A stretch of DNA of 64,000 nt from an uncultured Pirellulales bacterium (lineage in GTDB: Bacteria; Planctomycetota; Planctomycetia; Pirellulales; S012-138): positions 71,596-135,595 of the forward strand of contig CAYUMU010000001.1 of NCBI GenBank assembly GCA_964445985.1, read 5' to 3'. Positions 19,673 to 34,585 of the stretch are shown here, piece by piece. The stretch's first letter is position 1. Every line of letters begins with the position of its first letter. Made by a program: the position numbers and the translations under genes. The notes under the pieces are model-generated. The model was not told the DNA's origin. It worked only from the letters and a program-made list of their open reading frames with translations, and made no database searches.

Positions 19673-22600
19673 ATGCCCGCTAACGAACAGACCTGGCGCA
19701 ACCAAACTCAGATGCACTTGATCTTTGGGATCTCTTCCGCGGCCATGTTGGTGGCTACGGTGTGGATGATCGCCGACGATCACAATCGTGAGTGGAAGAC
19801 CTACCAGGAAACCTACTACGAAGATCTCGAAACCTGGACGTTGCAATCGCGCATCTACCAGCAGATGGCCACCGATTATGAAGGCGGTCGTCGCGCGCGT
19901 GCGGACGTGCTTCAACAACAGAAAGAACTGGCCCCGCCGGCCGAGTTCGGCGAACTGTTTTTGTTGTATGTCGCGCGGCACGCCGTGATGCAGCAGGCCA
20001 GTGCCGCCGCTGGCAGGCCAGGGTCCGAAAACGCGCTCCCCGATGCGTCCCCCGGAACCGACCGTTTCTATGCGGCGAACCAGACTGCCGCCATCGCCTT
20101 GGAATTGAACGCCGAGGCGGCAGATTTGGCCGTCAACTTGGAAATCGACCGCCGCTCGGTCGATCTGGAAGCTGACCCACGGCGAAGAGCCATCTTGGAA
20201 GGCCAAATTGCAGCGGCTGAAAAGCGGCTGGCCACGGTTCAACAACGGCTTCAACAGCAGGTTCAAGCAGCGGCTCCCCTGGTTCGCGAACTACTGGAAG
20301 AATACAGGCAACAGTTGCCAGCCAACCGCGGTCGTTTGCTGGGCGACGTACAACAGTCCCTGGAAGTCGCCGTGCAACAGCCTTCGGCCGAGCATCGAGC
20401 GCAGTTGACTCGGGAACTGGATGCCATCGTCAAGAATGCGCTGTTCAGCGAAGAAGTTCTTCAACGCGACCTCAAGTTCCTCCGCGCCGAGCTCGATGAA
20501 GCTCGCAGCGCTTTCAACCTGGCCTTTGGCAACGATGCCCCCCAGGCCGAGCTCGGCGCTCTCCAAGCCAAAGCCGATCAGTTCACCGCCCGCACCAGCG
20601 ACCTGAATGCTCGCTACGAAGCCGCCAAGACGTATCGCGAACGTTTGGAGAAATCGCGAGACGCGGTCAATGCTCGGGTGAATGTGGCGCAAAAGAGTTT
20701 GGACCGCTACGAAACAGAAATGGAAAGATTGCGAGCGCAGCTGGCTCGCAGTAAGCCGGGCGTGGGCAAAGACCTGATCAACATGCCCATCCTCGACGCC
20801 TTTAGCAAAGAAGGCGATATCAAGGTTCGCCAGATTTGGCTGCCAGAGCTAACCATCAACTTCAACTTCAAAGATGTCGCCCGCTTCGACCGCTGCATGA
20901 CGTGCCACTTGGGCATCGAGAAAACGGCGCCGGGATCGGCGGTCGCCGCCGGTTATCCAGCCGAACAGATCTTGCCCGGCCTGATGCTGGAAAGCCCTGC
21001 CGAGCCGCCCCTGCTATCGCCGGCCGAAGGCGAAGACCCGAACTCCTCGTCGGCCCTGTTGATCCCCAACGAGTTGGACCTGGAAACGCAGAATCAGTTG
21101 TTGCTGCAGGCTTACGGTTTCAGCCTGGCCCCCCAGGGCGTTTTCCGTGCCGATGACGCCACGATTGAGTTCGTGATGGATCGGAGCCGAGCTGCCAACG
21201 CGCGACTGCAACGCGGCGACGTCATCCTCAGCATCGGCTCTCGAGAAGTGCTCAATCGCGGCGAGGCCGCCGACCTCCTGCTGGGCGTGGTCCAATGGGG
21301 ACAACCGCTCGAGCTGAAGATTCGTCGTGGCGTACCCCAGCCTTATAGCACGCACCCCCGCTTGGATTTGTTCGGCGCTTCCACCAGCCCTCACTCCTTC
21401 GCGGCGATTGGCTGCACCGTTTGCCACGATGGCCAAGGTAGCGCCACGGCCTTCAAATGGGCGTCCCACACGCCCAACACGGTGGAAGAAGAACACCGTT
21501 GGACGCGTGAGTATGGTTGGTTCAACAACCACCACTGGATTTTTCCGATGATGCCCAAGCGGTTCTCGGAAAGCCTGTGCCTGAAGTGCCATCACGACGT
21601 GGTGGAGCTTTCCCCCAGCGAACGGTTTGCCGAGCCTCCCGCCCCGAAACTTATGGAAGGCTTCAATCTGGTTCAAGAGTACGGCTGCTTCGGCTGCCAC
21701 GAAATCAAAGGCTTTGATGGGCCGAATCGGCGCATCGGTCCCGACCTGCGGCTGGAGCCCGGCTATGCTTTCGCCGGATTGGCGCTCTTTGCGAATCCCA
21801 AGCTCTATACCGACGCAACCTATCGCAAAGATCATCCGGAGAGCTATCAACAGCGTCTCCAGCAGATCTTCGGCCCCAACGTCGTGGTTAAAGACGGTAA
21901 GCCTGGTTTCAAAAATGAGTCGCCCCGCGGCGATGAAGAGTTGGCTGCCTTCGCCGAACAGTTGCAGAAGCTGGCAGGCGACATTGTGGACAACCCCTCC
22001 AACGACACCTCGCGGCGGCGGTTGGTGCAGTTGCTGCAAGAAGACGAAGCGCGTGCCCGAAATCCGATTTCGCTCGAGCCTCCTTTCCTCAGCGCCGAAC
22101 AACACCGCCTGGCTCTCGTCCTGGCCGACACCGATACCCCAGGCGCCATGCGGCCGGTTGGCCCAAGCTTGCGATATCTGTCGCATAAGCTCAGCAAGGA
22201 GTTCGTGTTCAGCTGGATTCAGAATCCTCGCGATTTCCGCCCACAAACTAAAATGCCGCGATTCTTTGGCCTGGATGAACACCTGCTCCAGAAGGAAGTT
22301 TCAGAAGGCGAGGCATTCGGCAATACGGTCGATGAACCAGCTCACACGCACAAGATGGAAGCCATCGAGATCAGGGCGCTTACCGAGTACCTGCTGACTT
22401 CGAGCCAGCCCTTCATTCAGGCCGTGCAGCCAGAAGGTGTCACCGAGCAGGCTTCGGCGGAGCGTGGTAAAGACCTGTTCGCCAATCGTGGCTGCCTGGC
22501 TTGCCACCAGCACACGGCCTTCCCCGATCCGTTGCTCAAGGCCGACCAAGGACCCGATCTGTCGAACATCGGCACCAAGTTGCAAACCGGGGGCCAAGAA

Positions 22601-24613
22601 GCAGGCGAAAAAGGTGCCCGCTGGCTTTATACCTGGCTGAAGAATCCCTCGCACTACTCGGTGCGAACCAAAATGCCCAACATGCTGCTGGACCCCATCA
22701 CCGATCGAGAAGGCAAGGTGAGCGACCCGGCCGCCGATATTGCCTTGTTCCTGATGGGTTCGACCAACAACTGGCAGCCCGCGCCGTTGCCGCGCATCGA
22801 TCAAGAAGCCCTGGACCGTTTGGCGCTCGATCACTTGCAAGGGGTGTTCACCCGTCAGCAAGCCCAACAGTACTTGCAGACGGGCATCCCGCTGGAATTG
22901 GCCTCGGAAATCAAGGGCGACGAAGGAGAACTCTTGGGCCGGTTCCAGAACGAAACGGAACGGGTCAACAAGATCTTAAGATTTGTGGGTTCGCGAACCG
23001 TGCGCAAGTATGGTTGCTTTGCCTGTCACGATGTTCCTGGCATGGAAACGGCCAAACCCATCGGCACCGCCCTGGCAGACTGGGGACGCAAGGAACCTTC
23101 CAAGATCGCGTTCAACCAGATTGGCCAATTCGTCAAGCACACCGACCCCGATGTCGTCGTCGCGGGTCCCGGTGGCGAGCCCCATCTCCAATTGGAAGGC
23201 ATGAAGAACAAAGACAAAGCATTCTTCTTGCACGCCTTGCTAGGACACCACCGCGAAGGCTTCTTGTGGCAAAAACTACGGGCTCCGCGAAGTTTCGATT
23301 ACGAAATGACGCAGAACCAGCGCTACGACGAACGACTGCGAATGCCGCAGTTCCCCTTTGACGATAAACAGCGCGAAGCGGTGATGACCTTTGTGCTTGG
23401 GCTGGTCGCCGAGCCGCCGGCCGATCAATTCGTGTATCAGGCCGATCCCCGTCAGAAGGCGCTGAACTCCGGTCGGGCCGTGATTGAAAAGTTCAATTGC
23501 GGCGGTTGTCATACGCTCGATATGCCCAAGTATACCTTTACGTACGACCCCAGTTCCCCCCTCTATTCCAAGCAACAGCCCCCAGCGCCCGACGATTTCC
23601 ACGCGCTGTTCAAGCCGCATTACACGCCGCGGCAAGTCAGTGCTTCACGAGACATCGATTCGCGAGGGCTAGGCACGGCGACCATTTCTGCCATGCGAAG
23701 CGAAGGCCCACGGCCCGGTGAGTTGGGCACCGATGAAGATGACGAGGGCAACGAGGTCTACCTCTTTACCCTGTGGCAAGACGCGTTGATCGACGGCAAT
23801 TACTGGCTGAGCGGGGATCGCGGTTTCCGGGTCGTGCCCAGTTCGCTAATTCCCAACCCCAGCGAGCCGAGCCGGCCAGCCTGGGGTGGCGATTTCGCTC
23901 GCTGGCTCTATCCGCGCGTCGTTGAGCAGCGTAATCCTAAAGACTTGCCCAGTGCCTGGGGCTACGTACCTCCTCCCCTGATGGGAGAGGGCACGAAGGT
24001 TCAGCCTGCCTGGCTTTACGATTTCCTCCTTGAACCCTATCCCATTCGGCCCGCGGTCGTGTTGCGGATGCCAAAGTTTAATTTCTCGCCCCACGAAACG
24101 TCAGCGCTCGTTGATTTCTTCGCGGCCCGCGACAACGCCAAATACCCCTACGACTTTGTCGATCGCAAGAACGACCAACAGTTGGCTGCCAAGGCGGAGG
24201 AATACCCGCAACGGTTGGACGACGCGCTGAAGATCATCACCAACCGCAACTATTGCGTGGCTTGCCATCTGGTCGGCGATTTTGCCCCGGATGGCGGGGC
24301 CGAGGCTCTGGCGCCGAACCTGGATCAGGTTCATTCGCGACTCCGGCCCGACTACCTCGAACGCTGGATCGCCAATCCCAAGCACATCTTGCCGTATACG
24401 GCCATGTTCTCGGTAATCAAGCCCGAGCAACCGATTCGGCCAGACAAGTTCCAGGGCGAGGTGGGCGAACTGATCAAACAAGGAACACCCATGCAACAGA
24501 TCGACGCCATCGTTGACCTGCTGCTTAATTACGATCGCTACATGAAAAACCAGGTATCCATCAAGCCCCTGATTCAAGGATCGGCTCCAGCGGAAACCGA
24601 GGCGGACCAATAA
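19673..24613 (+). CDS. membrane-anchored octahaem c-type cytochrome with coiled-coil and PDZ-like segments (1646 aa)
   Basis: GGAGAGGG RBS. N-terminal TM helix (LIFGISSAAMLVATVWMI). Eight CxxCH motifs: CMTCH (nt 20894), CTVCH, CLKCH, CFGCH, CLACH, CFACH, CGGCH, CVACH. Class-I-like contexts are present (GCFGCHEIKG…IGPDL; GCLACHQH…GPDLSNIG). Confidence 0.9.
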   Translation: MPANEQTWRNQTQMHLIFGISSAAMLVATVWMIADDHNREWKTYQETYYEDLETWTLQSRIYQQMATDYEGGRRARADVLQQQKELAPPAEFGELFLLYVARHAVMQQASAAAGRPGSENALPDASPGTDRFYAANQTAAIALELNAEAADLAVNLEIDRRSVDLEADPRRRAILEGQIAAAEKRLATVQQRLQQQVQAAAPLVRELLEEYRQQLPANRGRLLGDVQQSLEVAVQQPSAEHRAQLTRELDAIVKNALFSEEVLQRDLKFLRAELDEARSAFNLAFGNDAPQAELGALQAKADQFTARTSDLNARYEAAKTYRERLEKSRDAVNARVNVAQKSLDRYETEMERLRAQLARSKPGVGKDLINMPILDAFSKEGDIKVRQIWLPELTINFNFKDVARFDRCMTCHLGIEKTAPGSAVAAGYPAEQILPGLMLESPAEPPLLSPAEGEDPNSSSALLIPNELDLETQNQLLLQAYGFSLAPQGVFRADDATIEFVMDRSRAANARLQRGDVILSIGSREVLNRGEAADLLLGVVQWGQPLELKIRRGVPQPYSTHPRLDLFGASTSPHSFAAIGCTVCHDGQGSATAFKWASHTPNTVEEEHRWTREYGWFNNHHWIFPMMPKRFSESLCLKCHHDVVELSPSERFAEPPAPKLMEGFNLVQEYGCFGCHEIKGFDGPNRRIGPDLRLEPGYAFAGLALFANPKLYTDATYRKDHPESYQQRLQQIFGPNVVVKDGKPGFKNESPRGDEELAAFAEQLQKLAGDIVDNPSNDTSRRRLVQLLQEDEARARNPISLEPPFLSAEQHRLALVLADTDTPGAMRPVGPSLRYLSHKLSKEFVFSWIQNPRDFRPQTKMPRFFGLDEHLLQKEVSEGEAFGNTVDEPAHTHKMEAIEIRALTEYLLTSSQPFIQAVQPEGVTEQASAERGKDLFANRGCLACHQHTAFPDPLLKADQGPDLSNIGTKLQTGGQEAGEKGARWLYTWLKNPSHYSVRTKMPNMLLDPITDREGKVSDPAADIALFLMGSTNNWQPAPLPRIDQEALDRLALDHLQGVFTRQQAQQYLQTGIPLELASEIKGDEGELLGRFQNETERVNKILRFVGSRTVRKYGCFACHDVPGMETAKPIGTALADWGRKEPSKIAFNQIGQFVKHTDPDVVVAGPGGEPHLQLEGMKNKDKAFFLHALLGHHREGFLWQKLRAPRSFDYEMTQNQRYDERLRMPQFPFDDKQREAVMTFVLGLVAEPPADQFVYQADPRQKALNSGRAVIEKFNCGGCHTLDMPKYTFTYDPSSPLYSKQQPPAPDDFHALFKPHYTPRQVSASRDIDSRGLGTATISAMRSEGPRPGELGTDEDDEGNEVYLFTLWQDALIDGNYWLSGDRGFRVVPSSLIPNPSEPSRPAWGGDFARWLYPRVVEQRNPKDLPSAWGYVPPPLMGEGTKVQPAWLYDFLLEPYPIRPAVVLRMPKFNFSPHETSALVDFFAARDNAKYPYDFVDRKNDQQLAAKAEEYPQRLDDALKIITNRNYCVACHLVGDFAPDGGAEALAPNLDQVHSRLRPDYLERWIANPKHILPYTAMFSVIKPEQPIRPDKFQGEVGELIKQGTPMQQIDAIVDLLLNYDRYMKNQVSIKPLIQGSAPAETEADQ

Positions 24614-24898
24614 ACCCGCCAGCAGCGGGCGTCTGTGACAATATGCCGCAGAACCGCCAAGGCAGGATTGGATATGATGACAGCAGGCAACAGAGTTTGA
24701 CGCGCAAAACGGGGGATCGGCTCGTATAATGGCAGGCCGATCGCGTGGCGCGATCGACGGCGTTGGTCACTCCATCAGGCGAGTCGGCGTCGTCCCACCC
24801 CCCGCAGGATTGTCACCCCAGGACCAACGGGTGAGACCTCAACGACCCTTGTGCCACCCGGGAAGAGTGGTTGCGAGCGAGTCAGGAGAAACTGGAAG

Positions 24899-25663
24899 AT
24901 GCTACATCGATTGTTTATCAAACCAGCCGCGATCTTCGGTTTTGCCCTCTGGACGATTTCCGGCGTTGCTTCCGCGGCCGATTGGGCCAACTTGAAGGCC
25001 ACGTTCGTCTATGATGGCAAGCCTCCCGTCGCCAAGCCCATTCAAATCAATAAGGACCAGGAAGCCTTTGGCAATCTGGGACTGGTCGACGAATCTTTGC
25101 TGGTTAGCAAAGATGGCGGCATTGCCAACATTGTGGTCTATGTTCGCACGCCCGATGTCGCAGTGAGCCCGGAGATCGAGAAAAACATCAAGCCCCAGGT
25201 AAAGTTTGATAACAATGGCGGCCGATTCGAGCCGCACATTCTGCCGGTCTGGATCGAGAAGCAGCAGGTTGTACTGCACAACAGCGACCCCGTTCCCCAC
25301 AATGCCAACCTGCAACCGTTGGGCGACGAAGGCAAGAACCCCCTGCTCCCACCCAACACCGAAGTGGATCACCGGTTCAATCGCCAGCAAATCATTCCGG
25401 TGCCTGTAACCTGCAACATTCATCCCTGGATGAAGGGCTACATTCTCCCGCGCAGTAACCCCTATGTGGCTATTAGCGATAAAGATGGCAACCTGGTTCT
25501 GGAAAACCTGCCGGCCGGAACCGAACTGGAATTCCAGGTTTGGCACGAACGGGCCGGCTATTTGGATTTTGGCGCATGGGCTCGAGGGCGCGTCACCATG
25601 AAGCTCAAGGCCGGCGACAACGACCTGGGCAAGATCAAGGTGCCCCCGGCCGTTTTTAAGTGA
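24899..25663 (+). CDS. secreted cupredoxin-like (amicyanin-type loop) protein with a C-terminal CarboxypepD_reg-like beta-sandwich, paralogue A
   Basis: ATG at 24899 (AGGAGA upstream) followed by a signal peptide. Putative type-1 Cu ligands: NSDPVPHN … CNIHPWM (C-x2-H-x2-M, as in amicyanin CTPHPFM). C-terminal ISDKDGNLVLENLPAGTELEFQVWHE. Confidence 0.7.
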   Translation: MLHRLFIKPAAIFGFALWTISGVASAADWANLKATFVYDGKPPVAKPIQINKDQEAFGNLGLVDESLLVSKDGGIANIVVYVRTPDVAVSPEIEKNIKPQVKFDNNGGRFEPHILPVWIEKQQVVLHNSDPVPHNANLQPLGDEGKNPLLPPNTEVDHRFNRQQIIPVPVTCNIHPWMKGYILPRSNPYVAISDKDGNLVLENLPAGTELEFQVWHERAGYLDFGAWARGRVTMKLKAGDNDLGKIKVPPAVFK

Positions 25664-25816
25664 AATGATCGAAATTCTGGCGCGGCTGGGGAGGACCATC
25701 TCCAGCGGTTCGCCAGGGTGGCCAAATTAGAAATCAAGTCTCGCCAGGCGGTGGACCAATGCCCCCCTGGCGAGACAGTTTTGCTTGCTCCTCCCCCCTA
25801 CGTTTCGCAACCCACC

Positions 25817-26713
25817 ATGTATTTCAAGAAGATAATCACCATCGCCTTCGCAACTGTCCTGCTGGCCGCCACGGGATGCGGTGATAGTTCCCGCTCCAGC
25901 CGGGCTCCGGCTCCCAACCGCGCCGTGGTTGACAATCTCCGCGGCAAGACTGGTGGCAGTGAAAGCGGCGACGAAAGCGCTGGCGGCGGCATGGACAAAG
26001 CCGACGGTTGGGGCACCCTCAAGGGCCGCCTGGTTTACGGCGGCAGCCCTCCGCCGCAATTGCCCGTATCCGTTACCAAAGACGTGCAATTCTGCGGTCA
26101 GCATCAATTGCTGGAGCAGACCTTGGTGATTGCTCCCGATGGCGCCGTGAAAGACATCGTGCTCTACCTCCGCACACGCAATCCCAAGGTGCATGAATCG
26201 TACGAAGCCAAGATCAAGGAACCCATTGTTTTCGACAATCACAACTGCCAGTTTGAGCCGCATGTTCTGCTCGTGCATACCGGCCAGCCCATGCAGATCC
26301 TTAACTCCGACCCGGTTGCCCACAATACCAGCGTGCAATTGCAGCGCAATCCATCCTTCAGCACGGGCGTGGCTTCCAACCAGCGCGTGGTGCAAACCAT
26401 GGATGTGGCCGAAACCTATCCCGCACCCGCGGCTTGCAATGTGCATCCTTGGATGGGTGGCTGGATCGTTGTGAAAGACAACCCCTACATGGCGGCTTCC
26501 GACGACAAAGGCAACTTCGTTATCGAGAACCTTCCCGCTGGCGTGGAGCTTGAGTTTCAAGTTTGGCACGAAAAGGGATCCGGCAACCAGGGAAGCGTGG
26601 ATGGCTCGAGTTCCAACGCTAAAATCAGCAGCGGTCGATTGAAGGTGACCATCCCCAAAGACGGCGAGTTGGATCTTGGAGACATCACGGTTCCCGCCTC
26701 GTCGTTCCGGTAA
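25817..26713 (+). CDS. cupredoxin-like lipoprotein, paralogue B of 24899-25663
   Basis: ATG at 25817 gives MYFKKIITIAFATVLLAATGC (lipobox). Same conserved blocks as paralogue A: NSDPVAHN, CNVHPWM, SDDKGNFVIENLPAGVELEFQVWHE. Confidence 0.7.
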   Translation: MYFKKIITIAFATVLLAATGCGDSSRSSRAPAPNRAVVDNLRGKTGGSESGDESAGGGMDKADGWGTLKGRLVYGGSPPPQLPVSVTKDVQFCGQHQLLEQTLVIAPDGAVKDIVLYLRTRNPKVHESYEAKIKEPIVFDNHNCQFEPHVLLVHTGQPMQILNSDPVAHNTSVQLQRNPSFSTGVASNQRVVQTMDVAETYPAPAACNVHPWMGGWIVVKDNPYMAASDDKGNFVIENLPAGVELEFQVWHEKGSGNQGSVDGSSSNAKISSGRLKVTIPKDGELDLGDITVPASSFR

Positions 26714-26849
26714 AAAGCCAAATGTATCTGCCCCGATAACCGACTCAACGGGGCGCTACTTGATCCGAATCACAACCCTTATGGTTGCATACAGACAAAC
26801 TTCCGGCGGGCTTCGCTCGCTTCATGAACTGGTGGATGGCAGTCAAGCA

Positions 26850-28160
26850 ATGGAAAAATTGACCCACAACGTGCAGGGGAGGGCGCCCATGCTTCAGGCA
26901 AAGGTGACTCGCGCCTCGCGTCCAAATCTTGCGCGCTGGAACTTGGCGATCTGGAACATTGCGATCTGGTGTGGAATCAGCGTCTGCCTGGCCGCGTCGG
27001 GTTGCGGCAGCAGCGATGTTCAGTTTGGCCTCAACCGGTTGATTGTGCCGCCGACCAATCTGGTGGTGACCAGCGAAGAAAGTGTTCTGGCCCAGCAGAA
27101 TCTCTCCACCGCGGAGGTGGAGGAAAAGCTGGACGCCTTGGATGAAACGTATCGCCGCAATGAAGAAATGTTGACCAGCGCGCTGGTTGCCGTCTTCGGC
27201 ACGCCCGATGATCCTTTCGCTTGGCCTGGCCTGGGGCTCGACATTCGCAAGCTGCGTATGGCCGCCGGCCCCACGGGGGTGCGCGGCGTTACCCGTGGCC
27301 TCTACCGCGAACACTGCGTGCATTGTCATGGCATCAATGGCGACGGGCTGGGTCCCACCGCGCGATTCCTCAATCCGTATCCGCGAAACTTTCAGCTCGG
27401 TGTGTTCAAGTTCACGTCCACCAATCAGGGCCGCAAGCCCACCATGGGCGATTTGCATCAAACTCTTCGCGATGGTATCCCTGGCACCGCAATGCCTTCC
27501 TTCAAGTTGAATTCGACCGCTGAAGTGGAAGCCTTGGCCGAATACGCCAAATACCTTTCAATTCGCGGTGAAGTGCAATTGCAATTGATGACCGCCTTTC
27601 AAGCGGCAGGCGGGGCCGTGGATGAGAAAACGCTCGAGGAAGAATTGAATGTCGTCCTGGAACTTGTCGGCAAGTCCTGGGGCGATGCACCCGAATATGT
27701 CGTGATCCCCGCGCAACGTCCCCCATTTCGCAGCGAGCAAGAAAAGCTGGACTCCATTGCCCGCGGCAAGGCGATCTTTCTCAATGCCGGCAAGGCAAAT
27801 TGCCTGGGCTGTCATGGCCCCACCGGTCTAGGAGATGGCGGCCAGGTCGATTACGACGTGTGGACGAAAATGCAGCGTGAGCAGGTCGCCCGTTTTCCAG
27901 GGTTGGCCAACTATTGGCCCCTTCCCGTCCGCCCCGCCGAAGCCCGCAATTTGCATCTAGGCATTTATCGCGGTGGAAGACGCCCCGTGGACTTGTATCG
28001 CAGAATTTACGCCGGCATCAAGGGAACGCCCATGCCGGCTCAAGGCCAAACGCTCAAGTCCGACGAAATTTGGAGCGTGGTGGATTATGTGATGTCGTTG
28101 CCGTACCAGCATGAATCGCCCCAGGCGATCGCTCCCACGGCACACCGAGTTGGCCTGTAA
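26850..28160 (+). CDS. dihaem c-type cytochrome, probable lipoprotein
   Basis: Two CxxCH motifs in class-I contexts (YREHCVHCHGINGDGLGP… and KANCLGCHGPTGLGDG…). TM/lipobox-like segment (IWCGISVCLAASGCGSS). The start is uncertain (ATG at 26850 or 26892; the ORF-track start is 26676). Confidence 0.8.
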   Translation: MEKLTHNVQGRAPMLQAKVTRASRPNLARWNLAIWNIAIWCGISVCLAASGCGSSDVQFGLNRLIVPPTNLVVTSEESVLAQQNLSTAEVEEKLDALDETYRRNEEMLTSALVAVFGTPDDPFAWPGLGLDIRKLRMAAGPTGVRGVTRGLYREHCVHCHGINGDGLGPTARFLNPYPRNFQLGVFKFTSTNQGRKPTMGDLHQTLRDGIPGTAMPSFKLNSTAEVEALAEYAKYLSIRGEVQLQLMTAFQAAGGAVDEKTLEEELNVVLELVGKSWGDAPEYVVIPAQRPPFRSEQEKLDSIARGKAIFLNAGKANCLGCHGPTGLGDGGQVDYDVWTKMQREQVARFPGLANYWPLPVRPAEARNLHLGIYRGGRRPVDLYRRIYAGIKGTPMPAQGQTLKSDEIWSVVDYVMSLPYQHESPQAIAPTAHRVGL

Positions 28161-28248
28161 GAGATATCAACCGAAGACTCGCGGAGTGGCCGCCGATTTC
28201 CCCACGGCAAACAGGCGGCGCCGCATAGCACCCCCTAGGGAGTAGCAC

Positions 28249-28998
28249 GTGGGACGTTTTTGGAGTTTGTTGTTTCTGCTAGTGCCGGTGCTGGGTGTCG
28301 CCGCGTTCCTGGCTGCGCCGGTCTACCATCATTGGTTGCCCGACGACTGGTCATCGCATGGCCACCGTATTGACCAGCTTTGGTACTTCATTCTGTACCT
28401 CACGGGCGCGGTGTTCGTGGCGACAGAAGTTGTGCTGTTTTGGTTCATGTGGAAATACGACGGCGCAAAGAACAAGCAACCGGCCGAATACATGCACGGC
28501 AGTCACAATCTCGAAGTGATTTGGACGCTGATCCCCGCGGCCACGCTGCTGTTTATTGCGATCATGCAGATGTCGGCCTGGGAAGAGTCCAAGATGGATA
28601 AACCTCATCTGCCCCCCTTGGCCCGCGTGACGGCCAGGCAGTTCGAATGGCGAATTCAATATCCCGGCGCCGATGGCAGGCTAGATACGTCCGATGATCT
28701 CTACACGGTGAACGACCTTGCGGTCCCGCTCAACGAAGAAATCATCGTCGACCTGGAGAGCATGGATGTGCTCCACAGCTTTTTCCTGCCCAACATGCGC
28801 GTGAAGCAAGATGCCGTGCCCGGCAGCGTAATCCCGGTCTGGTTCCGGCCCACCCGGGCTGGCGAATACGACATTGTCTGCGCCGAACTCTGCGGCTGGG
28901 GCCACTACAAAATGAAGGGTCGACTTTTGGTTCTCGCTCGACCTGAATACGAACAATGGCTTGAGAACTTGCGGATTCAGCAAGAGGCAACTCAATGA
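28249..28998 (+). CDS. ctaC: cytochrome c oxidase subunit II (CuA subunit, no fused cytochrome c domain)
   Basis: GTG start with AGGGAG 6 nt upstream and two N-terminal TM helices. CuA motif: DVLHSFFLP … CAELCGWGHYKM (H…C-x-E-x-C-G-x2-H-x2-M). Confidence 0.95.
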   Translation: MGRFWSLLFLLVPVLGVAAFLAAPVYHHWLPDDWSSHGHRIDQLWYFILYLTGAVFVATEVVLFWFMWKYDGAKNKQPAEYMHGSHNLEVIWTLIPAATLLFIAIMQMSAWEESKMDKPHLPPLARVTARQFEWRIQYPGADGRLDTSDDLYTVNDLAVPLNEEIIVDLESMDVLHSFFLPNMRVKQDAVPGSVIPVWFRPTRAGEYDIVCAELCGWGHYKMKGRLLVLARPEYEQWLENLRIQQEATQ

Positions 28999-30803
28999 GC
29001 AGCACGGTGGCGGGAGCCCACGCGCACGGCGATGCCCACGGCCCCCAAGAGCATTCGCTCGGGTTTTTACAAAAGTACGTCTTCTCCCTCGACCATAAGG
29101 TGATCGGGATTCAGTTCCTGTTTTCCACCTTGCTATGGTTTGTGGTCGGAGGCTTGCTCGCCTTGGCGGTTCGCTGGCAAGTGGCCTGGCCGTGGAGCAA
29201 TATGCCCATCGTGGGCGACATGCTATTCTCGGGAGAAGGCGGACAAATATCGCCCGAGTTCTATACCATGCTGTTTACCATGCATGCCTCGGTGATGATC
29301 TTTTTCGTGATCATCCCCATCCTCGCGGGGGCATTCGGTAATTTTCTCATTCCGCTGATGATCGGCGCGGATGATATGGCGTTTCCGGTGCTCAACATGC
29401 TCAGCTACTGGGCCATGTGGCCGGCCTTCTTCTGCATGATCTTGGGCTTTTTTGTGGAAGGCGGAGCCGCCTCGGCCGGGTGGACGGCATACCCCACCCT
29501 GTCATCAGTTCCGGCGGCGGCGCCGGCCAGCGGTCAGGGGCAAACGCTCTGGCTGCTGGGACTAATTTTCGTCGGCATTTCATCCATGATGGGCTCGGTT
29601 AATTACTTAACCACCGTGATTCAGATGCGTGCGCCTGGCATGACCATGTTCCGCTTGCCAATGACCATCTGGGGGATGTTCATTACGGCCGTGCTGCAAG
29701 CATTCGCGCTGCCCGTGCTCACCGCCGCGCTCTTCATGCAATTGATGGATCGCGAACTCGGAACCGGCTTTTTCGCCCCCATGGGCCTGATTGTGAATAA
29801 CACCACCGCCGGCGCCGGCGGCGGGCAGCCCCTGCTGTGGCAACACTTGTTTTGGTTCTATTCGCACCCCGCCGTGTACATCATGATCCTGCCCGCGATG
29901 GGCATGGTTTCCGACATGATCTCCTGCTTCGCCCGCAAACCACTGTTCGGTTACAAACCGATGGTGTATTCCCTCTCGGCAATCGCCGGGCTGGGGTTCA
30001 TCGTGTGGGGGCACCATATGTTCATGTCGGGCATGAACCCTGCGCTCGGGCTCACGTTCATGGTCTCCACCATGATGATCGCCCTGCCCAGCGCGGTGAA
30101 AACCTTTAACTGGCTTGGCACCATTTGGGGTGGACGGATTCAATTTACCACCGCGATGCTGTTCGCCCTCTCGTTTGTGTCCATGTTTATCATTGGCGGC
30201 CTGTCAGGCATCTTCATGGCCGCCACGCCCGTCGATATCTTCATTCACGATACTTACTTCATCGTGGCCCACATTCACTACGTACTCTTTGCCAGCACGG
30301 CGATGGCGGTCTTCGGCGCAATCTATTTTTGGTTCCCCAAAATGTTCGGTCGTATGATGAATGAAACGCTCGGCAAGATTCATTTCTTCCTGACGTTTAT
30401 CTTCCTCAACGGCACCTTCTTCGCCATGCATATTCTCGGGGCCGGCGGCTTTCCCCGGCGGCTCGCCGATCCATATCACTACAAGACCTTCGCCCACCTC
30501 CAAGGTCTGAACGAGTTCATTACCATCTGCGCACTGCTGATGGGCCTGGTCCAAGTCATTTTTGTCTTCAACTTTGTCTACAGCCTGTTTGCCGGTCCTC
30601 GCTGCGGGCGGAATCCCTGGCGCAGCAATACTCTGGAATGGACCGCGCCGAGCCCTCCGGGACACGGCAACTTTGACTTCCAACCCATCGTCTACCGGGG
30701 ACCTTACGAATACTCCTCGCCAGAAGTAGACGAAGACTATTACCCCCAAACGCAGCCGCCCCCCGAAGGCGTTGAACCGCGCCCCGAAGGCGGGCACCAC
30801 TAG
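28995..30803 (+). CDS. ctaD: cytochrome c oxidase subunit I (haem-copper oxidase catalytic subunit)
   Basis: ATGA overlap with the subunit II stop. Canonical motifs WFYSHPAVYIMILPAMG, GHHMF and HDTYFIVAHIHYVLF. 602 aa, 12+ TM helices. Confidence 0.97.
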   Translation: MSSTVAGAHAHGDAHGPQEHSLGFLQKYVFSLDHKVIGIQFLFSTLLWFVVGGLLALAVRWQVAWPWSNMPIVGDMLFSGEGGQISPEFYTMLFTMHASVMIFFVIIPILAGAFGNFLIPLMIGADDMAFPVLNMLSYWAMWPAFFCMILGFFVEGGAASAGWTAYPTLSSVPAAAPASGQGQTLWLLGLIFVGISSMMGSVNYLTTVIQMRAPGMTMFRLPMTIWGMFITAVLQAFALPVLTAALFMQLMDRELGTGFFAPMGLIVNNTTAGAGGGQPLLWQHLFWFYSHPAVYIMILPAMGMVSDMISCFARKPLFGYKPMVYSLSAIAGLGFIVWGHHMFMSGMNPALGLTFMVSTMMIALPSAVKTFNWLGTIWGGRIQFTTAMLFALSFVSMFIIGGLSGIFMAATPVDIFIHDTYFIVAHIHYVLFASTAMAVFGAIYFWFPKMFGRMMNETLGKIHFFLTFIFLNGTFFAMHILGAGGFPRRLADPYHYKTFAHLQGLNEFITICALLMGLVQVIFVFNFVYSLFAGPRCGRNPWRSNTLEWTAPSPPGHGNFDFQPIVYRGPYEYSSPEVDEDYYPQTQPPPEGVEPRPEGGHH

Positions 30804-30814
30804 TAAATCCGTTT

Positions 30815-30836
30815 CGCGAAGTCTCGCTACTTCGCG
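30815..30836 (+). other. intercistronic stem-loop between ctaD and the haem A synthase gene
   Basis: Perfect 8-bp inverted repeat cgcgaagt / acttcgcg with a 6-nt loop, 12 nt after the ctaD stop. There is no U-run, so it is more likely an mRNA processing or stability element than a terminator. Confidence 0.35.
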
Positions 30837-30837
30837 G

Positions 30838-32007
30838 ATGCTCGAATTTGGCTGGTCCGTTGGAAACGCCCTCCAGTCTAGCAGCGAACGCTTCGCCCCT
30901 AAAAACCCTTTCAGAAACTGTGTTGTGACGTCAACTTCCTCCGCGCCGCTAAGTCCCTGGCCTCATCGCATGGCGGTGCTGCTGGTGTGTCTTACCTATC
31001 CATTGATTTGGATCGGGGGGCTCGTCACTACTTTTAAGGCAGGCATGGCGTTTCCTGATTGGCCCACGTCTGGTGGATACAACCCACTGGCCTACCCCCT
31101 CGATGAATGGTGGCATGGTCCATTTGATATGTTCATTGAGCATGGCCATCGGCTGTTTGCCATTCTCGTGGGGCTTGTCACCATTGGCTTGGTTGTCGTG
31201 TTCTTCGCCAAAGAGCGACGACGTTGGGTGCGCTGGCTGGCATTGGCCGCATTCGCCGCCGTATGCCTGCAAGGCGGCATTGGTGGACTGCGAGTCGTGC
31301 TCGATCAACGCCGCGTGGCGATGATCCACGGGTGCGTGGGACCGGCCTTTTTTGCGTTTGCGGTCATTCTGGCCGTGGTCACTTCGCGCCGCTGGCGAGA
31401 TTCAACCGGCATCCCGGCTTCTCCTCAAGCAACTCGTCTGCGTCGGTTGGCCGTGGCCACCGCTGCCTTGGCCTATGCCCAATTGGTATTGGGAGCGTTC
31501 GTAAGGCATGTGCCCGAAACCGGAAGTGCTGGCGAATTTCAAGCGGTCGTCATCTTTCACTTGCTCGGCGCGGTTGTGCTCGCGGCGCACACCATCGGCC
31601 TTGGCGTGCTGGTGCTCAAACGCAACTATCCCGGTGTAGGCTTGCGGTGGTCGGCCTGGAGCCTGGTTACTGTTTTAGGAATTCAAATTGGTTTGGGAAT
31701 CGCCGCCTGGATCGCCAAGTACGGGTTTCCAGGCTGGTTTCAGCAGTTCTCGTTTCCAGCCAATCATCTGATCGTGGCAGGCGGTCCTTGGCAGTACGGT
31801 CTGGCCACGGCTCACATGGCAACCGGATCACTGTTCCTGGCGGCCGCGGTGATGCTGGCCACGCGGGCGCTGCGATTCTTGCGAGTTGAACGCATGCAAA
31901 CGGAAAGCATCAACGCGACGACTAAACTCCCCCTGGCCGATTCGGTAGGCCGCGGTGGCATCACCGACATAAAACGTGTTCGATCGCTCGCGGAGGCGGC
32001 GCCATGA
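30838..32007 (+). CDS. ctaA: haem A synthase (COX15/CtaA family)
   Basis: Polytopic membrane protein with a COX15-like N-terminal region (…LIWIGGLVTTFKAGMAFPDWPT…MFIEHGHRLFA…) and conserved His-containing helices. The start is uncertain (ATG at 30838, GTG at 30922/30925; the ORF-track start at 30772 overlaps ctaD). Confidence 0.8.
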   Translation: MLEFGWSVGNALQSSSERFAPKNPFRNCVVTSTSSAPLSPWPHRMAVLLVCLTYPLIWIGGLVTTFKAGMAFPDWPTSGGYNPLAYPLDEWWHGPFDMFIEHGHRLFAILVGLVTIGLVVVFFAKERRRWVRWLALAAFAAVCLQGGIGGLRVVLDQRRVAMIHGCVGPAFFAFAVILAVVTSRRWRDSTGIPASPQATRLRRLAVATAALAYAQLVLGAFVRHVPETGSAGEFQAVVIFHLLGAVVLAAHTIGLGVLVLKRNYPGVGLRWSAWSLVTVLGIQIGLGIAAWIAKYGFPGWFQQFSFPANHLIVAGGPWQYGLATAHMATGSLFLAAAVMLATRALRFLRVERMQTESINATTKLPLADSVGRGGITDIKRVRSLAEAAP

Positions 32008-32915
32008 GTGTTACCACGACCACGCTGGCCGTGGCAGATGCCCGACCCATCTGGACCAGGGCCAATTCGTATTTGGAACTAGCCAAGCCGCGAATTGCGG
32101 TCCTGGTGCTGATTACCGTTGCCGTTTCCGCGGTGCTCGCCTCGGGCGGTTTCCCCAACTCGCTGATCTTGCTGCACACCTTGCTGGGCACGGCCATTGT
32201 GGCCGCCAGCGCCAGTGCGCTCAATCAATGGATTGAGCAAGATAGCGACGCGCTCATGGCCCGCACTGCCGATCGCCCGCTTCCCTCGGGCAGGCTGGCG
32301 TCGCGCGAGGTGTTGTTGCTCGGGTTACTAGGGGCAATCGCCGGCGTTGCGTATTTGGCGGTGTTGGTGCATTGGCAAGCGGCGCTATTTGGCCTGCTGA
32401 CTTGGACCCTTTACGTTTGGGTTTATACTCCGCTCAAGTCGCGCACCACGCTGAATACGGTCGTGGGCGCCGTGGCCGGCGCCATGCCTGTTTGCATTGG
32501 CTGGAGCGCGGTGGGCGATGTCGATCTGGCGTGCCTGACCATGTTTCTGCTCGTTTACTTGTGGCAGTTTCCACACTTCATGGCCATCGCCTGGCTGTAT
32601 CGCAAACAGTATCATCAGGCCGGCATCTGGATGTTGCCCGTCGCCGACCCGCAAGGTCATCGCACCGGCGCCCAAGCGGTCGCTGGAGCCATGGCCTTGT
32701 TGCCTGTCAGTCTCATGCCCATGGTCTTGCTGCCCGTGGCTTCGTTCTACCCGCTGGGTGTATCGCTGCTAGGGTTGGGCCAGTTGTCCTGTGCCACTTG
32801 GTTCGCTCATGAGCGTTCCGACCGTTCGGCACGGTGGCTATTGCGAGCATCGTTGATATATTTGCCGGCTGTGTTGTTGCTATTGGTTTGGGGACCGCTG
32901 TACTGGCGGTCGTAA
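32004..32915 (+). CDS. ctaB: protohaem IX farnesyltransferase (haem O synthase, UbiA family)
   Basis: ATGA overlap with the ctaA stop. UbiA-type motifs (…ASASALNQWIEQDSDALMARTADRPLPSGRL… and the second Asp-rich region). About 9 TM helices. Confidence 0.92.
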   Translation: MSVTTTTLAVADARPIWTRANSYLELAKPRIAVLVLITVAVSAVLASGGFPNSLILLHTLLGTAIVAASASALNQWIEQDSDALMARTADRPLPSGRLASREVLLLGLLGAIAGVAYLAVLVHWQAALFGLLTWTLYVWVYTPLKSRTTLNTVVGAVAGAMPVCIGWSAVGDVDLACLTMFLLVYLWQFPHFMAIAWLYRKQYHQAGIWMLPVADPQGHRTGAQAVAGAMALLPVSLMPMVLLPVASFYPLGVSLLGLGQLSCATWFAHERSDRSARWLLRASLIYLPAVLLLLVWGPLYWRS

Positions 32916-32934
32916 GAAGGAGTAGGCGTTCTCC

Positions 32935-33894
32935 ATGGCACACGAGGATCACGAACACACGCATATTAAGCTGGAATACCAGCCGGCTTTGCCGCTGCGC
33001 AACGGTAAGCTGTTTATGTGGCTGTTCTTGTCGACCGAGATTATGTTCTTCGCCGCTTTGATCGGCGTGTATATCGTGATTCGCTTTGGCGCTCCGGTTT
33101 GGCCGCACCCCGCCCACGTTCACCTCAGCGAACCTACTGGCGCGTTCAACACGTTTGTGTTGATTTGCTCCAGCGTCAGCATCGTGCTCGCTTTAGAAGC
33201 CGCGCGAAGCGAAAAAACCGGCCAGGCCAAGTTATGGATGGTGGTCACCTTCTGCCTGGGGTCGCTCTTCCTGGTGGTCAAGGGATTTGAATACAACGCC
33301 AAATTTTCCCACGGCATCCACCCCAGCTTTCCCCGCAGCCGCATTTACGAGCAGCCCGACATTTACTATGCCGGCGCGGTGCGGACTCGGGTACGTGAGC
33401 TATCGGCGCCCTTGCTGGAGAAACGCGCCCAATTAGAGCAGCAAGTCAACTCACCCGATGCCGCCGACAAGCCGGCCCTGCGAACAGAGTTGAACCAAGT
33501 GGAAGAGCAATTGCGGTTTTATGACACCAATATTCTCTCAATTGCCAACAACCCGGCGGCCACCGAAGCGGAAATTGCAGCCCTGGCCGATCGAATCATG
33601 CCGCTCCCTCAGCCCCATTCGCACGATCATCGCGTGGGCTTGAATGATCAATATCCCGACTTGAAGCTTCCCGTGGTCATCCCTGGCGGAAACATGTGGG
33701 CCAGCACCTATTTTACCGTCACTGGCTTTCATGCCGTGCACGTGATTGTCGGACTGATTGCCTTCGCATTCCTCCTGCTGCCTGGTTGTCGGCTGGGGCG
33801 CGCCAACGCTGGCACCATTGAAAACGTGGCGTTGTATTGGCACTTTGTCGATCTTGTCTGGATTTTCCTGTTCCCCTTGCTGTACTTGTTCTAG
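32935..33894 (+). CDS. ctaE: cytochrome c oxidase subunit III with a ~120-aa hydrophilic insertion
   Basis: AGGAG upstream. Subunit III hallmarks: [54 protein letters not shown]. The insertion spans aa ~130-250. Confidence 0.9.
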
Positions 33895-34049
33895 GCAGGT
33901 CCGGCGCGTTCCGTTCAAACTTGAGCCAACCAACCACAACAGCAAACGAGCGCCGTAGCCCGCAACCCGTGTTGAAGCCGGCGTTGGCAATAAACACCTC
34001 CAGGACCGCATTGCGTCGCAAAGCTCCTGCCGATGGAAAGTGAGCAACC

Positions 34050-34559
34050 ATGACCAAGCATGACAGCCACGGCGACGAAGAGTACAGCACCCACGGCTAC
34101 GACGAACACCACGGCAAGCCGCACGATGTCAAGAAATACCTCTACGTATTTCTGGCTTTATGCGTGCTGACCATGATGTCGTTTTTCACGTACTCGGAAT
34201 TCTGGCCATTCCATGAGCACCCTCAGGTGGGCTGGACCTTCATGATGGCCGTGTCGCTCTCCAAAGCCCTCTTGGTGATGCTGTTCTTCATGCATCTCAA
34301 GTACGAAGCCAGTTGGAAATACGTCCTCACCATTCCGGCCAGTGTCATGTCGGTGTTCCTGGTGATCGCGCTGATCCCCGATGTTAAATGGCGCTATGAA
34401 ACCATCGTGGGTGGCCGCACGGTCAGCCCGCAGCAGGCCCAGTTCCTCGCCACGCCCGCCGATATGCAGCTATTGATCCGCGAAGAATCCACGGATGCCG
34501 ATAACGCGCATCCCGATCATGATACGCACGGCGACGCGCATCCTGATAAGGCTCACTAG
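34050..34559 (+). CDS. ctaF: prokaryotic cytochrome c oxidase subunit IV family protein with His/Asp-rich termini
   Basis: The core KKYLYVFLALCVLTMMSF…KALLVMLFFMHLKYE…VLTIPASVMSVFLVIALI matches the COX4_pro/CyoD-like pattern. The termini are rich in H/D (MTKHDSHGDEEYSTHGYDEHHGKPHD; DADNAHPDHDTHGDAHPDKAH). Confidence 0.75.
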   Translation: MTKHDSHGDEEYSTHGYDEHHGKPHDVKKYLYVFLALCVLTMMSFFTYSEFWPFHEHPQVGWTFMMAVSLSKALLVMLFFMHLKYEASWKYVLTIPASVMSVFLVIALIPDVKWRYETIVGGRTVSPQQAQFLATPADMQLLIREESTDADNAHPDHDTHGDAHPDKAH

Positions 34560-34585
34560 CCACTTCGCGCCGGAGCTTGATCTTG

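Follow-up and report, generated by a model that had tools for sequence, protein, structure and literature searches.

In several prokaryotes, electrons leaving a quinol-oxidising complex reach a terminal oxidase or a reaction centre by way of membrane-tethered or paired blue copper proteins, in place of soluble cytochrome c; examples are auracyanins A and B of Chloroflexus and Roseiflexus, halocyanin of haloarchaea, and sulfocyanin (SoxE) of Sulfolobus. In Rhodobacter, a soluble cytochrome c2 and a membrane-anchored cytochrome cy connect the bc complex to the oxidase. Soils, waters and sediments all harbor abundant planctomycetes, whose aerobic respiratory chain is known almost solely from gene lists. 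Auracyanin has been described as accepting electrons from alternative complex III in the periplasm (PMC10873879, PMC7439408), and in Acidithiobacillus ferrooxidans the cupredoxins AcoP and rusticyanin have a dihaem cytochrome c and an aa3 oxidase as working partners, AcoP interacting with both (PMC4059628; PMC5982212). In the genome of the planctomycete Thermogutta, no typical cytochrome c or plastocyanin gene was found for the transfer to complex IV from complex III (PMC5673643).

Within the window, that is, the whole 64-kb stretch of DNA analyzed here, two neighboring genes designated cupA and cupB lie between the genes for a bc complex and those for an aa3-type oxidase (Table 1), as pointed out in an earlier note made from the sequence alone. 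From their fold, ligands and context we infer, with moderate confidence, that the products of both genes are type-1 copper electron carriers operating between the bc complex and the oxidase.

Table 1. Features of the cupA/cupB locus, with positions numbered along the window.
Feature	Positions	Strand	Description	Basis
Rieske protein	15992-17167	+	bc complex, upstream	Pfam and NCBIfam
Cytochrome b (b6-like)	17382-18158	+	bc complex, upstream	Pfam and NCBIfam
Subunit-IV-like cytochrome b C-terminal protein	18249-19601	+	bc complex	
Octahaem cytochrome c	19673..24613	+	1646 aa, membrane-anchored, 8 CxxCH motifs	
cupA	24899..25663	+	254 aa, two-part cupredoxin, predicted secreted	ORF and translation
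cupA NSDPVPHN block	25280..25303	+	His134 (codon 25298-25300), predicted first copper ligand, then conserved Asn135	
cupA CNIHPWM ligand loop	25412..25432	+	Cys172, His175, Met178; C-x2-H-x2-M	
cupA C-terminal beta-strand region (NPY...ELEFQVWHE...)	25457..25660	+	like PF13620 positions ~28-63	
cupB	25817..26713	+	298 aa, lipoprotein paralogue of cupA	
cupB Cys93 and Cys144			probable disulfide	
cupB CNVHPWM ligand loop	26435..26455	+		
Dihaem cytochrome c lipoprotein (LAASGC)	26889..28160	+	423 aa	
aa3-type oxidase genes CoxB, CoxA, CtaA, CtaB, CoxC, CoxD	28249..34559	+		
CoxB	28249-28998	+	intact CuA motif CAELCGWGHYKM; lacks a fused cytochrome c domain	

Reading of the ORFs placed the start of cupA at an ATG with AGGAG upstream, and its product begins with MLHRLFIKPAAIFGFALWTISGVASA followed by ADW, which was assigned by eye as a Sec-type signal (residues 1-26) with an A-S-A cleavage motif. 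The product of cupB, whose start agrees with public gene calls, begins with MYFKKIITIAFATVLLAATGC, a lipobox also assigned by eye, in which Cys21 (codon 25877-25879) leads into a linker of some 43 residues rich in Ser and Gly. The two proteins share 39% identity over 242 residues in BLASTP (E 4e-58), a similarity far above chance that identifies them as paralogues, and they have three blocks in common: NSDPVPHN in cupA and NSDPVAHN in cupB, CNIHPWM and CNVHPWM, and NPYVAISDKDGNLVLENLPAGTELEFQVWHE and NPYMAASDDKGNFVIENLPAGVELEFQVWHE. The earlier description of tandem diverged paralogues sharing three blocks, one with a cleavable signal and the other with a lipobox, was therefore borne out, and the pairing of signals is conserved phylum-wide. 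No member of the family besides these two was found in the window. A scan of positions 24400-28400 revealed no promoter-like sites, and terminator-like hairpins were detected there on the minus strand only, in lower numbers than in shuffled sequence.

The AlphaFold2 model of cupA, built without metal, has high confidence (pLDDT 92.9, pTM 0.86), and all 50 PDB matches listed for it by Foldseek are cupredoxin-fold proteins or domains, CuA domains and similar ones among them. There were 38 PDB matches at E <= 1e-3, and target-normalized TM-scores ranged from 0.65 to 0.78; amicyanin, pseudoazurin, plastocyanin and a Nitrosopumilus cupredoxin were matched at E values from 3e-6 to 1e-3, with 2.9e-6 for 5fc9 and about 1e-5 for amicyanins. 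A PDB search with the single sequence gave no match, and the family profile alone reached amicyanin, aligning 87 positions at an E of 0.01-0.05 that is marginal on sequence alone. In this profile alignment the PHN, Cys, His and Met positions are in register, with His134, Cys172, His175 and Met178 of cupA falling on the four copper ligands of amicyanin and the His134 block on its MPHN; the C-x2-H-x2-M loop reads CTPHPFM in amicyanin. The amicyanin-type spacing and the upstream histidine proposed from the letters alone both occur in a protein with a predicted cupredoxin fold. In the model, Cys172, which is the sole cysteine of cupA, ends strand 168-171, and Met178 adjoins the start of strand 179-185, placements that, with the in-register alignment, lend indirect support to a putative common site for the four ligands; the corresponding predicted ligands in cupB are His169, Cys207, His210 and Met213. 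No curated cupredoxin model of Pfam or NCBIfam matched cupA or cupB at threshold, a single relative of 33 matched Cupredoxin_1 (E 0.028), and NCBIfam returned no match of any kind for either protein at E <= 1, amicyanin included.

The 33 relatives show no variation at His134, Cys172, His175, Trp177 and Met178. Among 280 family domains the complete HCHM set is present in 243, the first-ligand His in 254 and the hallmark Asn after it in 253. About 13% of the domains lack one or more ligands, and in cupA/cupB orthologues the four ligands are essentially invariant. The residues at the cysteine pair of cupB covary, reading C/C in 178 domains and F/G in 64 with one mixed case, which points to a disulfide, in keeping with the periplasmic location suggested by the signal of cupA and the lipobox of cupB. 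Given the modeled fold and the conservation of the ligands, cupA and cupB are predicted to bind copper.

The C-terminal part of these proteins had been described in the earlier note as CarboxypepD_reg-like, and this held for a likeness to the second half of the model, while cupA and cupB themselves stayed below threshold. The segment NPY..(S/T)D..G.F.I..LP.G.Y.L.VW fits positions ~28-63 of the 82 in the CarboxypepD_reg model (PF13620, gathering threshold 32.3 bits), but the Pfam scan gave no match at threshold for either protein. Weak matches of 12-18 bits were obtained for 19 of the 33 relatives, and a Sinorhizobium homologue with the same architecture reached 35.6 bits; the matches in relatives covered model positions ~28-63 or 30-82 only, never the whole model contiguously. 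A further connection between the family and CarboxypepD_reg is provided by P0268, in which the family C-terminal region coincides in part with true CarboxypepD_reg repeats. Joining the N-terminal strand to the C-terminal part in a spliced sequence widened the PF13620 match to positions 2-48 or 13-51, with a modest gain that never exceeded the threshold. CarboxypepD_reg domains have a transthyretin-like seven-stranded sandwich fold. When residues 183-254 of cupA were modeled alone (pLDDT 87.7), most strands were lost, a sign, short of proof for the fold, that the region does not form an autonomous domain; Foldseek found nothing significant in the PDB for this truncated model (best E 2.1), and the matches listed for the full model span the cupredoxin part only. 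The N-terminal strand (residues 29-38) probably completes the module, and since its first half would seemingly come from that strand, across the cupredoxin in the sequence, the CarboxypepD_reg-like domain would be split.

The position of the two genes suggests how such proteins could work. Because CoxB has a CuA motif and no fused cytochrome c domain, the oxidase needs an electron donor. As periplasmic blue copper proteins with an amicyanin-like site (His, then Cys-x2-His-x2-Met), cupA and cupB would each consist of a cupredoxin core packed on the extra beta-sheet module resembling half of a CarboxypepD_reg domain, cupA being released into the periplasm and cupB being held at the membrane by its lipid anchor and flexible tether of about 43 residues. 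The Rieske/cytochrome b complex, with its octahaem cytochrome c as the probable donor, would pass electrons to them, and they in turn to the CuA of the aa3 oxidase, either directly or through the dihaem cytochrome c lipoprotein, so that the pair would take the role held elsewhere by soluble cytochrome c or plastocyanin. This role in electron transfer is predicted from fold, ligands and gene context, and the sequence in which the partners act is likewise a prediction. The dihaem cytochrome c lipoprotein, whose gene accompanies a cupredoxin gene at other loci too (adjacent in L049 and L063), could alone link the bc complex and the oxidase, and if it sufficed the cupredoxins would be dispensable or otherwise employed.

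The co-occurrence with the oxidase cluster extends well beyond this genome. The order Rieske, cytochrome b, octahaem cytochrome c, two or three cupredoxin copies, dihaem cytochrome c, CoxBA, CtaAB and CoxCD was found at 66 of 80 related loci, reaching relatives of ~35% identity, and typically a soluble copy is followed by a lipoprotein copy ahead of the dihaem cytochrome c. The placement between the bc complex and the oxidase first noticed in the window is thus a conserved one, and the rest of the 80 loci are mostly other respiratory settings (Nar-type reductase genes, c-type cytochromes). At the 64 multi-copy loci, a lipoprotein stands last in at least 50 (about 61 by eye) and first in at most 7. 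The nearest neighbors from other genomes are of the same copy type for 64 of 65 first copies and 60 of 65 last copies, and the first and last copies are separate old orthologous lineages, distinguished by a distance tree together with this nearest-neighbor test; comparison of bit scores alone did not separate cupA-type from cupB-type orthologues. Single copies adjoin NarG/NarH/NarJ-like genes, a second Rieske/cytochrome b set, or a dihaem cytochrome c gene, and a Rhodobacteraceae homologue lies between two c-type cytochrome genes. One proteobacterial homologue adjoins a MauG/CCP-type dihaem peroxidase gene. The family comprises ~1,900 clusters at 50% identity (E <= 1e-30).

One lineage has a fusion protein in which the octahaem cytochrome continues at its C-terminus, across a Pro/Ala-rich linker, into a third copy whose ligands are intact. 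A gene-call artefact was considered as the source of this fusion and set aside, the 1809-aa product being identical in three assemblies, which may stem from one population. Covalent fixation of a copy to the cytochrome, the membrane tether of cupB, and an extra beta-sheet module that could serve as a docking surface would all be in keeping with cupA and cupB being fixed subunits, accessory to the oxidase or to a bc-aa3 supercomplex, which in the manner of AcoP would stabilize the oxidase and provide a built-in copper relay. We regard this as unlikely, because cupA, like nearly all first copies, lacks an anchor and has a cleavable signal, and because linkers as long as that of cupB or that of the fusion suggest a swinging domain and not a rigid subunit; the occurrence of the family with Nar-type enzymes likewise speaks against it, as does the lack of any significant sequence relation to AcoP (loop C-x6-H-x4-M).

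Ligands of the kind His/Cys/His/Met, combined with a conserved Asn and the spacing of amicyanin, are characteristic of a buried electron-transfer site, whereas the known CuA chaperones, PCuAC and Sco, have exposed Met/His or CxxxC sites. Family members are also found beside genes for molybdenum nitrate reductases, which need no copper, one copy is fused to a multihaem cytochrome, and two to three diverged copies with different anchoring would be hard to account for in an assembly factor. These observations make it very improbable that cupA and cupB are copper chaperones or assembly factors supplying the CuA or CuB of the oxidase, even though CtaA and CtaB, for haem A assembly, belong to the same cluster, the scan of cluster genes revealed neither Sco nor PCuAC, and a gene of the SCO copper-chaperone family adjoins the Sinorhizobium homologue. 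Least probable of all is a role as non-redox modules for binding or sensing in the periplasm, or as CopI-type copper-tolerance proteins, with an incidental respiratory placement: CarboxypepD_reg-like sandwiches are generic binding modules and the module does occur, often without ligands, in sensor-type proteins (ankyrin-repeat proteins of the BlaR1/M56 type, a fusion with an ECF sigma factor, and a Ser/Thr kinase that also has a Cu/Zn superoxide dismutase domain), but the near-invariance of the four ligands in cupA/cupB orthologues and the gene order kept across distant relatives argue against it, and copper-resistance genes were not seen nearby among the genes scanned. The loss of ligands in part of the domains and these sensor-type proteins indicate that the family is not always a redox carrier.

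We therefore retain electron transfer from the bc complex to the oxidase as the preferred role of cupA and cupB. A wider and clearly more tentative proposal, which we put forward as a possibility, is that Planctomycetota and some Alphaproteobacteria share an undescribed class of blue copper proteins in which a cupredoxin is inserted in a split CarboxypepD_reg-like sandwich, and that the planctomycete set of free, lipid-tethered and sometimes cytochrome-fused forms would serve as a general system of periplasmic electron distribution, taking the place of soluble cytochrome c in linking the octahaem bc complex to the aa3 oxidase and also feeding periplasmic Nar/Nxr-type enzymes. Neither Pfam nor NCBIfam has a model covering the family, and no description of it was found in the literature on planctomycete cupredoxins, on the combination of cupredoxin and CarboxypepD_reg, or on "methylamine utilization protein". 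The label resembling this last name, which the earlier note gave for similar proteins, was not encountered; current labels are "hypothetical protein", "plastocyanin" (JGI) and, for the Sinorhizobium homologue, "carboxypeptidase regulatory-like domain-containing protein" (PGAP). With no curated model and such vague labels, a probable core component of respiration is overlooked or misnamed by annotation pipelines. The family provides a concrete, testable candidate for a carrier between complexes III and IV, of which none had been recognized in planctomycetes, and its combination of a short-loop type-1 site with an extra beta-sheet module bears on the tuning and docking of copper sites.

Among described proteins, amicyanin (MauC) of Paracoccus and methylotrophs ranks among the best matches of the cupA/cupB family in both sequence and structure, with the same cupredoxin fold, four ligands in register, the PHN motif and the C-x2-H-P-[F/W]-M loop, to our knowledge the shortest ligand loop known. 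Amicyanin is, however, a single domain of ~105 residues that serves methylamine dehydrogenase, whereas cupA and cupB have 254 and 298 residues, an added beta-sheet module and a place in a bc/aa3 cluster. An assignment as amicyanin proper was rejected, since size, gene context and NCBIfam all disagree with it; no mau genes were found among the neighbors scanned. From CarboxypepD_reg (PF13620) proteins, cupA and cupB differ in that their likeness is confined to the model's second half and stays below threshold. AcoP has a dihaem cytochrome c and an aa3 oxidase as partners, as is predicted for cupA and cupB, and differs in its C-x6-H-x4-M loop, its green site, its lack of a CarboxypepD_reg-like part and its acidophilic iron-oxidizing chain; no sequence relation to AcoP or rusticyanin was detected.

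Auracyanins, halocyanin and sulfocyanin follow the same logic as cupA and cupB, with one free and one anchored form, but belong to other cupredoxin subfamilies with longer ligand loops, are single-domain proteins of other phyla, and have ACIII or SoxM as partners; none of them appeared among the sequence matches of cupA and cupB. By its lipobox, its conservation as a lipoprotein copy, and its linkage to a quinol-oxidizing complex and an oxidase, cupB fits the functional class of tethered carriers, a fit of function and not of sequence membership. The same diffusible and tethered design is seen in cytochromes c2 and cy of Rhodobacter, which are unrelated proteins that use haem, not copper.

The interval in which the earlier note had placed tandem diverged paralogues is filled by two ORFs, A and B, both on one strand, and the public gene calls give identical products. 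The two proteins share 39% identity over 242 residues (E 4e-58), which bears out the claim, and all three sequence blocks quoted as common to them were found in both. As had also been noted, one copy carries a cleavable signal and the other a lipobox: A begins with a Sec-like signal (MLHRLFIKPAAIFGFALWTISGVASA, followed by ADW) with an A-S-A cleavage site, and B with a lipoprotein signal (MYFKKIITIAFATVLLAATGC), from which some 43 residues rich in Ser and Gly lead to the conserved part. Cys172 is the only cysteine in A, and four occur in B (Cys21 of the lipobox, Cys93, Cys144 and Cys207). When all six frames of the window were searched with the family profile, no third copy was found.

The reported placement between a bc complex and an oxidase proved correct, with the bc genes upstream and the Cox genes downstream. 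The octahaem cytochrome gene keeps its syntenic position across the phylum, and CoxB carries a CuA motif that is intact and is fused to no cytochrome c domain. The position of the ABC-type ATPase gene directly after CoxD is kept elsewhere; the ORFs that follow it (window 35403-37927) gave no family match. One relative has a small lipoprotein-like ORF between its octahaem cytochrome and first cupredoxin genes, and no comparable ORF was found in the 285-bp spacer of the window (24614-24898).

Locations of the genes, residues and related loci discussed in the text
Feature	Location	Strand	Remarks
Rieske protein	upstream of A	+	bc cluster
b6-type cytochrome b	upstream of A	+	bc cluster
Subunit-IV-like protein	upstream of A	+	bc cluster
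Octahaem cytochrome c	19673-24613	+	1646 residues, eight CxxCH motifs; fourth gene of bc cluster
Gene A	24899-25663	+	254 residues; ATG start, AGGAG upstream of start
Positions 57 and 108 of A	25067-25069, 25220-25222		equivalent to Cys93/Cys144 of B
Gene B	25817-26713	+	298 residues; ATG at 25817 is the best start
Dihaem cytochrome c	downstream of B		423 residues; itself a lipoprotein
CoxB, CoxA, CtaA, CtaB, CoxC, CoxD	downstream of dihaem cytochrome gene		in this order
DrrA/NodI-like ABC-type transporter ATPase	34577-35509	+	also L001 20047-20774, L063 14619-16420
Secretin	3810-8126	-	1438 residues, six Secretin_N repeats; typical planctomycete gene
YTV-repeat protein	11615-13165	+	typical planctomycete gene
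MATCAP (microtubule-associated tyrosine carboxypeptidase) family protein	42124-43662	-	512 residues; PF08014, E 2e-131
Ser/Thr kinase with WD40 propellers	58814-62689	+	1291 residues; typical planctomycete gene
Lipoprotein-like ORF of one relative	L001 9801-9998 / L002 1156-1353		65 residues
NarG-, NarH-, NarJ-like neighbours	L022 3332-14952; L024; L020; L015; L049 2820-14014		single-copy loci
Cytochrome-cupredoxin fusion	L085 6861-12290		1809 residues
Sinorhizobium meliloti pSymA homologue	L088 7992-8711
Rhodobacteraceae plasmid homologue	L089 6995-7756		twin-arginine (TAT) export signal

Neither Pfam and NCBIfam scans of A and B nor a single-sequence search of PDB sequences gave a match. The suggested cupredoxin fold was nevertheless recovered by structure prediction, as an AlphaFold2 model of A, built from an alignment of 33 relatives (mean pLDDT 92.9, pTM 0.86), had 38 Foldseek matches in the PDB at E <= 1e-3, and all 50 matches listed were cupredoxin-fold proteins or domains. 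These included a Nitrosopumilus cupredoxin (E 2.9e-6), many amicyanin entries (about 1e-5), the cupredoxin domain of a Thermus nitrite reductase, a Cupredoxin_1 protein of Bacillus anthracis, pseudoazurins and plastocyanins, over alignments of about 90-110 columns with TM-scores of 0.65-0.78 (normalised to the target). By sequence alone, the family profile reached amicyanin marginally (E 0.01-0.05), aligning NSDPVxHN with REAMPHN and CNIHPWM with CTPHPFM of amicyanin; His134, Cys172, His175 and Met178 of A therefore fall on its four copper ligands, in keeping with the amicyanin-like loop and upstream His first noticed. These four residues and Trp177 are invariant in the 33 aligned sequences, and among 280 family domains pooled from two database searches the complete His/Cys/His/Met set is kept in 243, Trp177 in 277 and an Asn after the first His in 253. 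In classical cupredoxins, an Asn always directly follows the first His ligand. In the model Cys172 ends one strand and Met178 begins the next, as in known type-1 sites, and from homology we infer that the four side chains would converge on one predicted copper site.

Positions 57 and 108 (A numbering) covary nearly perfectly across the 280 domains, being Cys/Cys in 178, Phe/Gly in 64, Phe/Ala in 6 and mixed in 1. This fits a putative disulfide in most members, B included, which would link the first strand of the cupredoxin with the N-terminal segment, with Phe/Gly packing taking its place in A-type proteins; such a Cys pair would also agree with a periplasmic location.

The proposed CarboxypepD_reg-like domain stood as a resemblance of its second half, seen weakly in relatives, and not as a match of A or B, neither of which was hit by CarboxypepD_reg-type Pfam models. 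Among the 33 relatives, matches to PF13620 (19 proteins) and PF13715 (8) were all below threshold and always aligned residues ~182-220 with model positions ~28-63, in the second half only. A Sinorhizobium homologue with the overall architecture of A and B reached 35.6 bits (Pfam threshold 32.3), over positions 30-82 only, and in the distant relative P0268 seven repeats match family profile positions 166-214, these stretches being genuine CarboxypepD_reg repeats by Pfam (E 2e-59). The long N-terminal strand of A (residues 29-38, LKATFVYDGK), a segment of the kind that typically opens CarboxypepD_reg-type domains, probably provides the absent first half. Two observations, both only suggestive, favour this: residues 183-254, when modelled by themselves, lose strands 198-205 and 239-248 seen in the full model, and when the N-terminal segment is spliced to the C-terminal part, the Pfam match grows to cover model positions 2-48 or 13-51. 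Residues 183-254 modelled alone had no significant structural neighbour.

When the family profile was searched against 1.84 billion representative proteins, 13,479 clusters were found at E <= 1e-3, the weaker of which may match the sandwich part alone, and 1,867 at E <= 1e-30. Scanning one genome per species revealed at least 593 family-encoding loci, the best 80 of which, nearly all from Planctomycetota, were probed with the respiratory proteins of the window. The association with the oxidase cluster proposed earlier holds across these genomes: 66 of the best 80 loci keep the gene order of the window (Rieske, cytochrome b, subunit IV, octahaem cytochrome, two or occasionally three family copies, dihaem cytochrome, CoxB, CoxA, CtaA, CtaB, CoxC, CoxD), and two more loci found by exact protein look-up agree. 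The complete aerobic bc-aa3 cluster occurs in metagenome bins labelled 'Candidatus Kuenenia stuttgartiensis' (L028, L031, L042, L059, L062); these labels, and that of a Chitinophagaceae-labelled locus (L038), look doubtful.

The pairing of soluble and tethered versions is likewise conserved, since under a strict rule at least 50 of the 64 multi-copy loci have a lipobox on the last copy (about 61 by eye), and at most 7 have one on the first copy. In a distance analysis, the nearest neighbour from another genome was of the same kind for 64 of the 65 first and 60 of the 65 last copies, and in a neighbour-joining tree 62 of the 65 last copies share a branch with only 6 first copies. The soluble and tethered forms therefore represent ancient lineages, each conserved in its own right, rather than recent duplicates.

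In one lineage, a Pro/Ala-rich linker joins the octahaem cytochrome to a third family copy, which follows it and has its ligands intact. This fusion, identical in three assemblies of perhaps common origin, has a cytochrome portion 39% identical to that of the window and is followed by a Sec-type and then a lipoprotein copy; it argues that the family module physically works with the octahaem cytochrome. Five single-copy loci adjoin NarG-, NarH- and NarJ-like genes, accompanied in L022 by a MOSC-domain gene and a second Rieske/cytochrome b/multihaem set, and in L049 by two MFS, nitrate transporter-like genes and a dihaem cytochrome c gene. One NarG-like protein bears a TAT-like signal, by which these Nar/Nxr-type enzymes would be periplasmic, and the arrangement suggests that the carrier also serves them. 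In L049 and L063 the cupredoxin gene stays beside the dihaem cytochrome gene, with the oxidase genes elsewhere. The C-x-[IV]-HPWM loop is present in all 12 single-copy loci examined (CN[IV]HPWM in 11, CTVHPWM in L082), and the first-His motif N-x-[DE]-x3-H-N, as a strict pattern, in 10.

Beyond Planctomycetota, alphaproteobacterial homologues share architecture, ligands and Cys pair, among them genes carried by rhizobial megaplasmids. The pSymA gene, annotated only as 'carboxypeptidase regulatory-like domain-containing protein', adjoins an SCO family gene, with SoxYZ, c-type cytochromes and a cbb3-like oxidase close by; the Rhodobacteraceae homologue keeps ligands and Cys pair and is flanked by c-type cytochrome and MauG/CCP-type dihaem peroxidase genes. 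One or more ligands are absent from about 13% of family domains. The module also lies, often without copper ligands but sometimes intact, inside larger proteins (P0121, P0122, P0187, P0177, P0198, P0257) with a BlaR1/M56 peptidase and ankyrin repeats, an ECF sigma factor, CarboxypepD_reg repeats and a redoxin domain, or a Ser/Thr kinase, TPR and Cu/Zn superoxide dismutase domain; the BlaR1/M56-ankyrin, ECF sigma and kinase proteins indicate use beyond the respiratory cluster.

We consider it rather probable that A and B are type-1 copper electron carriers joining the bc complex to the terminal oxidase, because they combine a cupredoxin fold and an intact, strongly conserved type-1 ligand set with export signals that give one free and one long-tethered form, because they are sited between a quinol-oxidising complex and an oxidase whose CuA subunit has no cytochrome of its own, and because c-type cytochrome genes are recurrently adjacent and a bc-complex cytochrome is naturally fused to the module. 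Electrons would pass from the quinol-oxidising bc complex, with its multihaem cytochrome, through A and B to the oxidase; the copper proteins could precede the dihaem cytochrome, follow it or work alongside it, all three being compatible with the sequences, and a link to periplasmic nitrate reductase-type enzymes would fit some relatives. The main alternative, to which we give a rather low probability, is that A and B would be bound partner subunits of a supercomplex, by analogy with AcoP of Acidithiobacillus ferrooxidans, which interacts with the oxidase as well as with a dihaem cytochrome c, and maintains oxidase activity (PMC4059628; PMC5982212). A copper-chaperone role is less likely, since the predicted site is of the electron-transfer type, relatives go with enzymes needing no copper, and diverged, differently anchored copies are conserved. 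The ligand conservation in these orthologues makes a purely structural or sensing role unlikely.

The paralogue observation is thus confirmed, and within the reach of computation its interpretation as electron carriers is supported. The 'methylamine utilization protein' label mentioned in the earlier note was not found among the database names of the family, which were 'hypothetical protein', 'plastocyanin' (JGI) and the carboxypeptidase regulatory-like name (PGAP), and full-text literature searches found no description of it. A reconstruction of respiration in the planctomycete Thermogutta terrifontis found no typical cytochrome c and no plastocyanin gene to serve the complex III-to-IV step (PMC5673643). 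The two-part architecture, the conserved soluble/tethered pairing, the octahaem cytochrome fusion and the phylum-wide role appear to be undescribed. Amicyanin proper is rejected, as size, context and models all disagree, and CarboxypepD_reg is matched by half only in this family. A and B have the fold and ligands of the cupredoxin superfamily, yet match no curated model of it. Respiratory chains with a blue copper carrier are a well-known kind of system, and by mechanism A and B group with amicyanin, plastocyanin, auracyanins, halocyanin, sulfocyanin, rusticyanin and AcoP.
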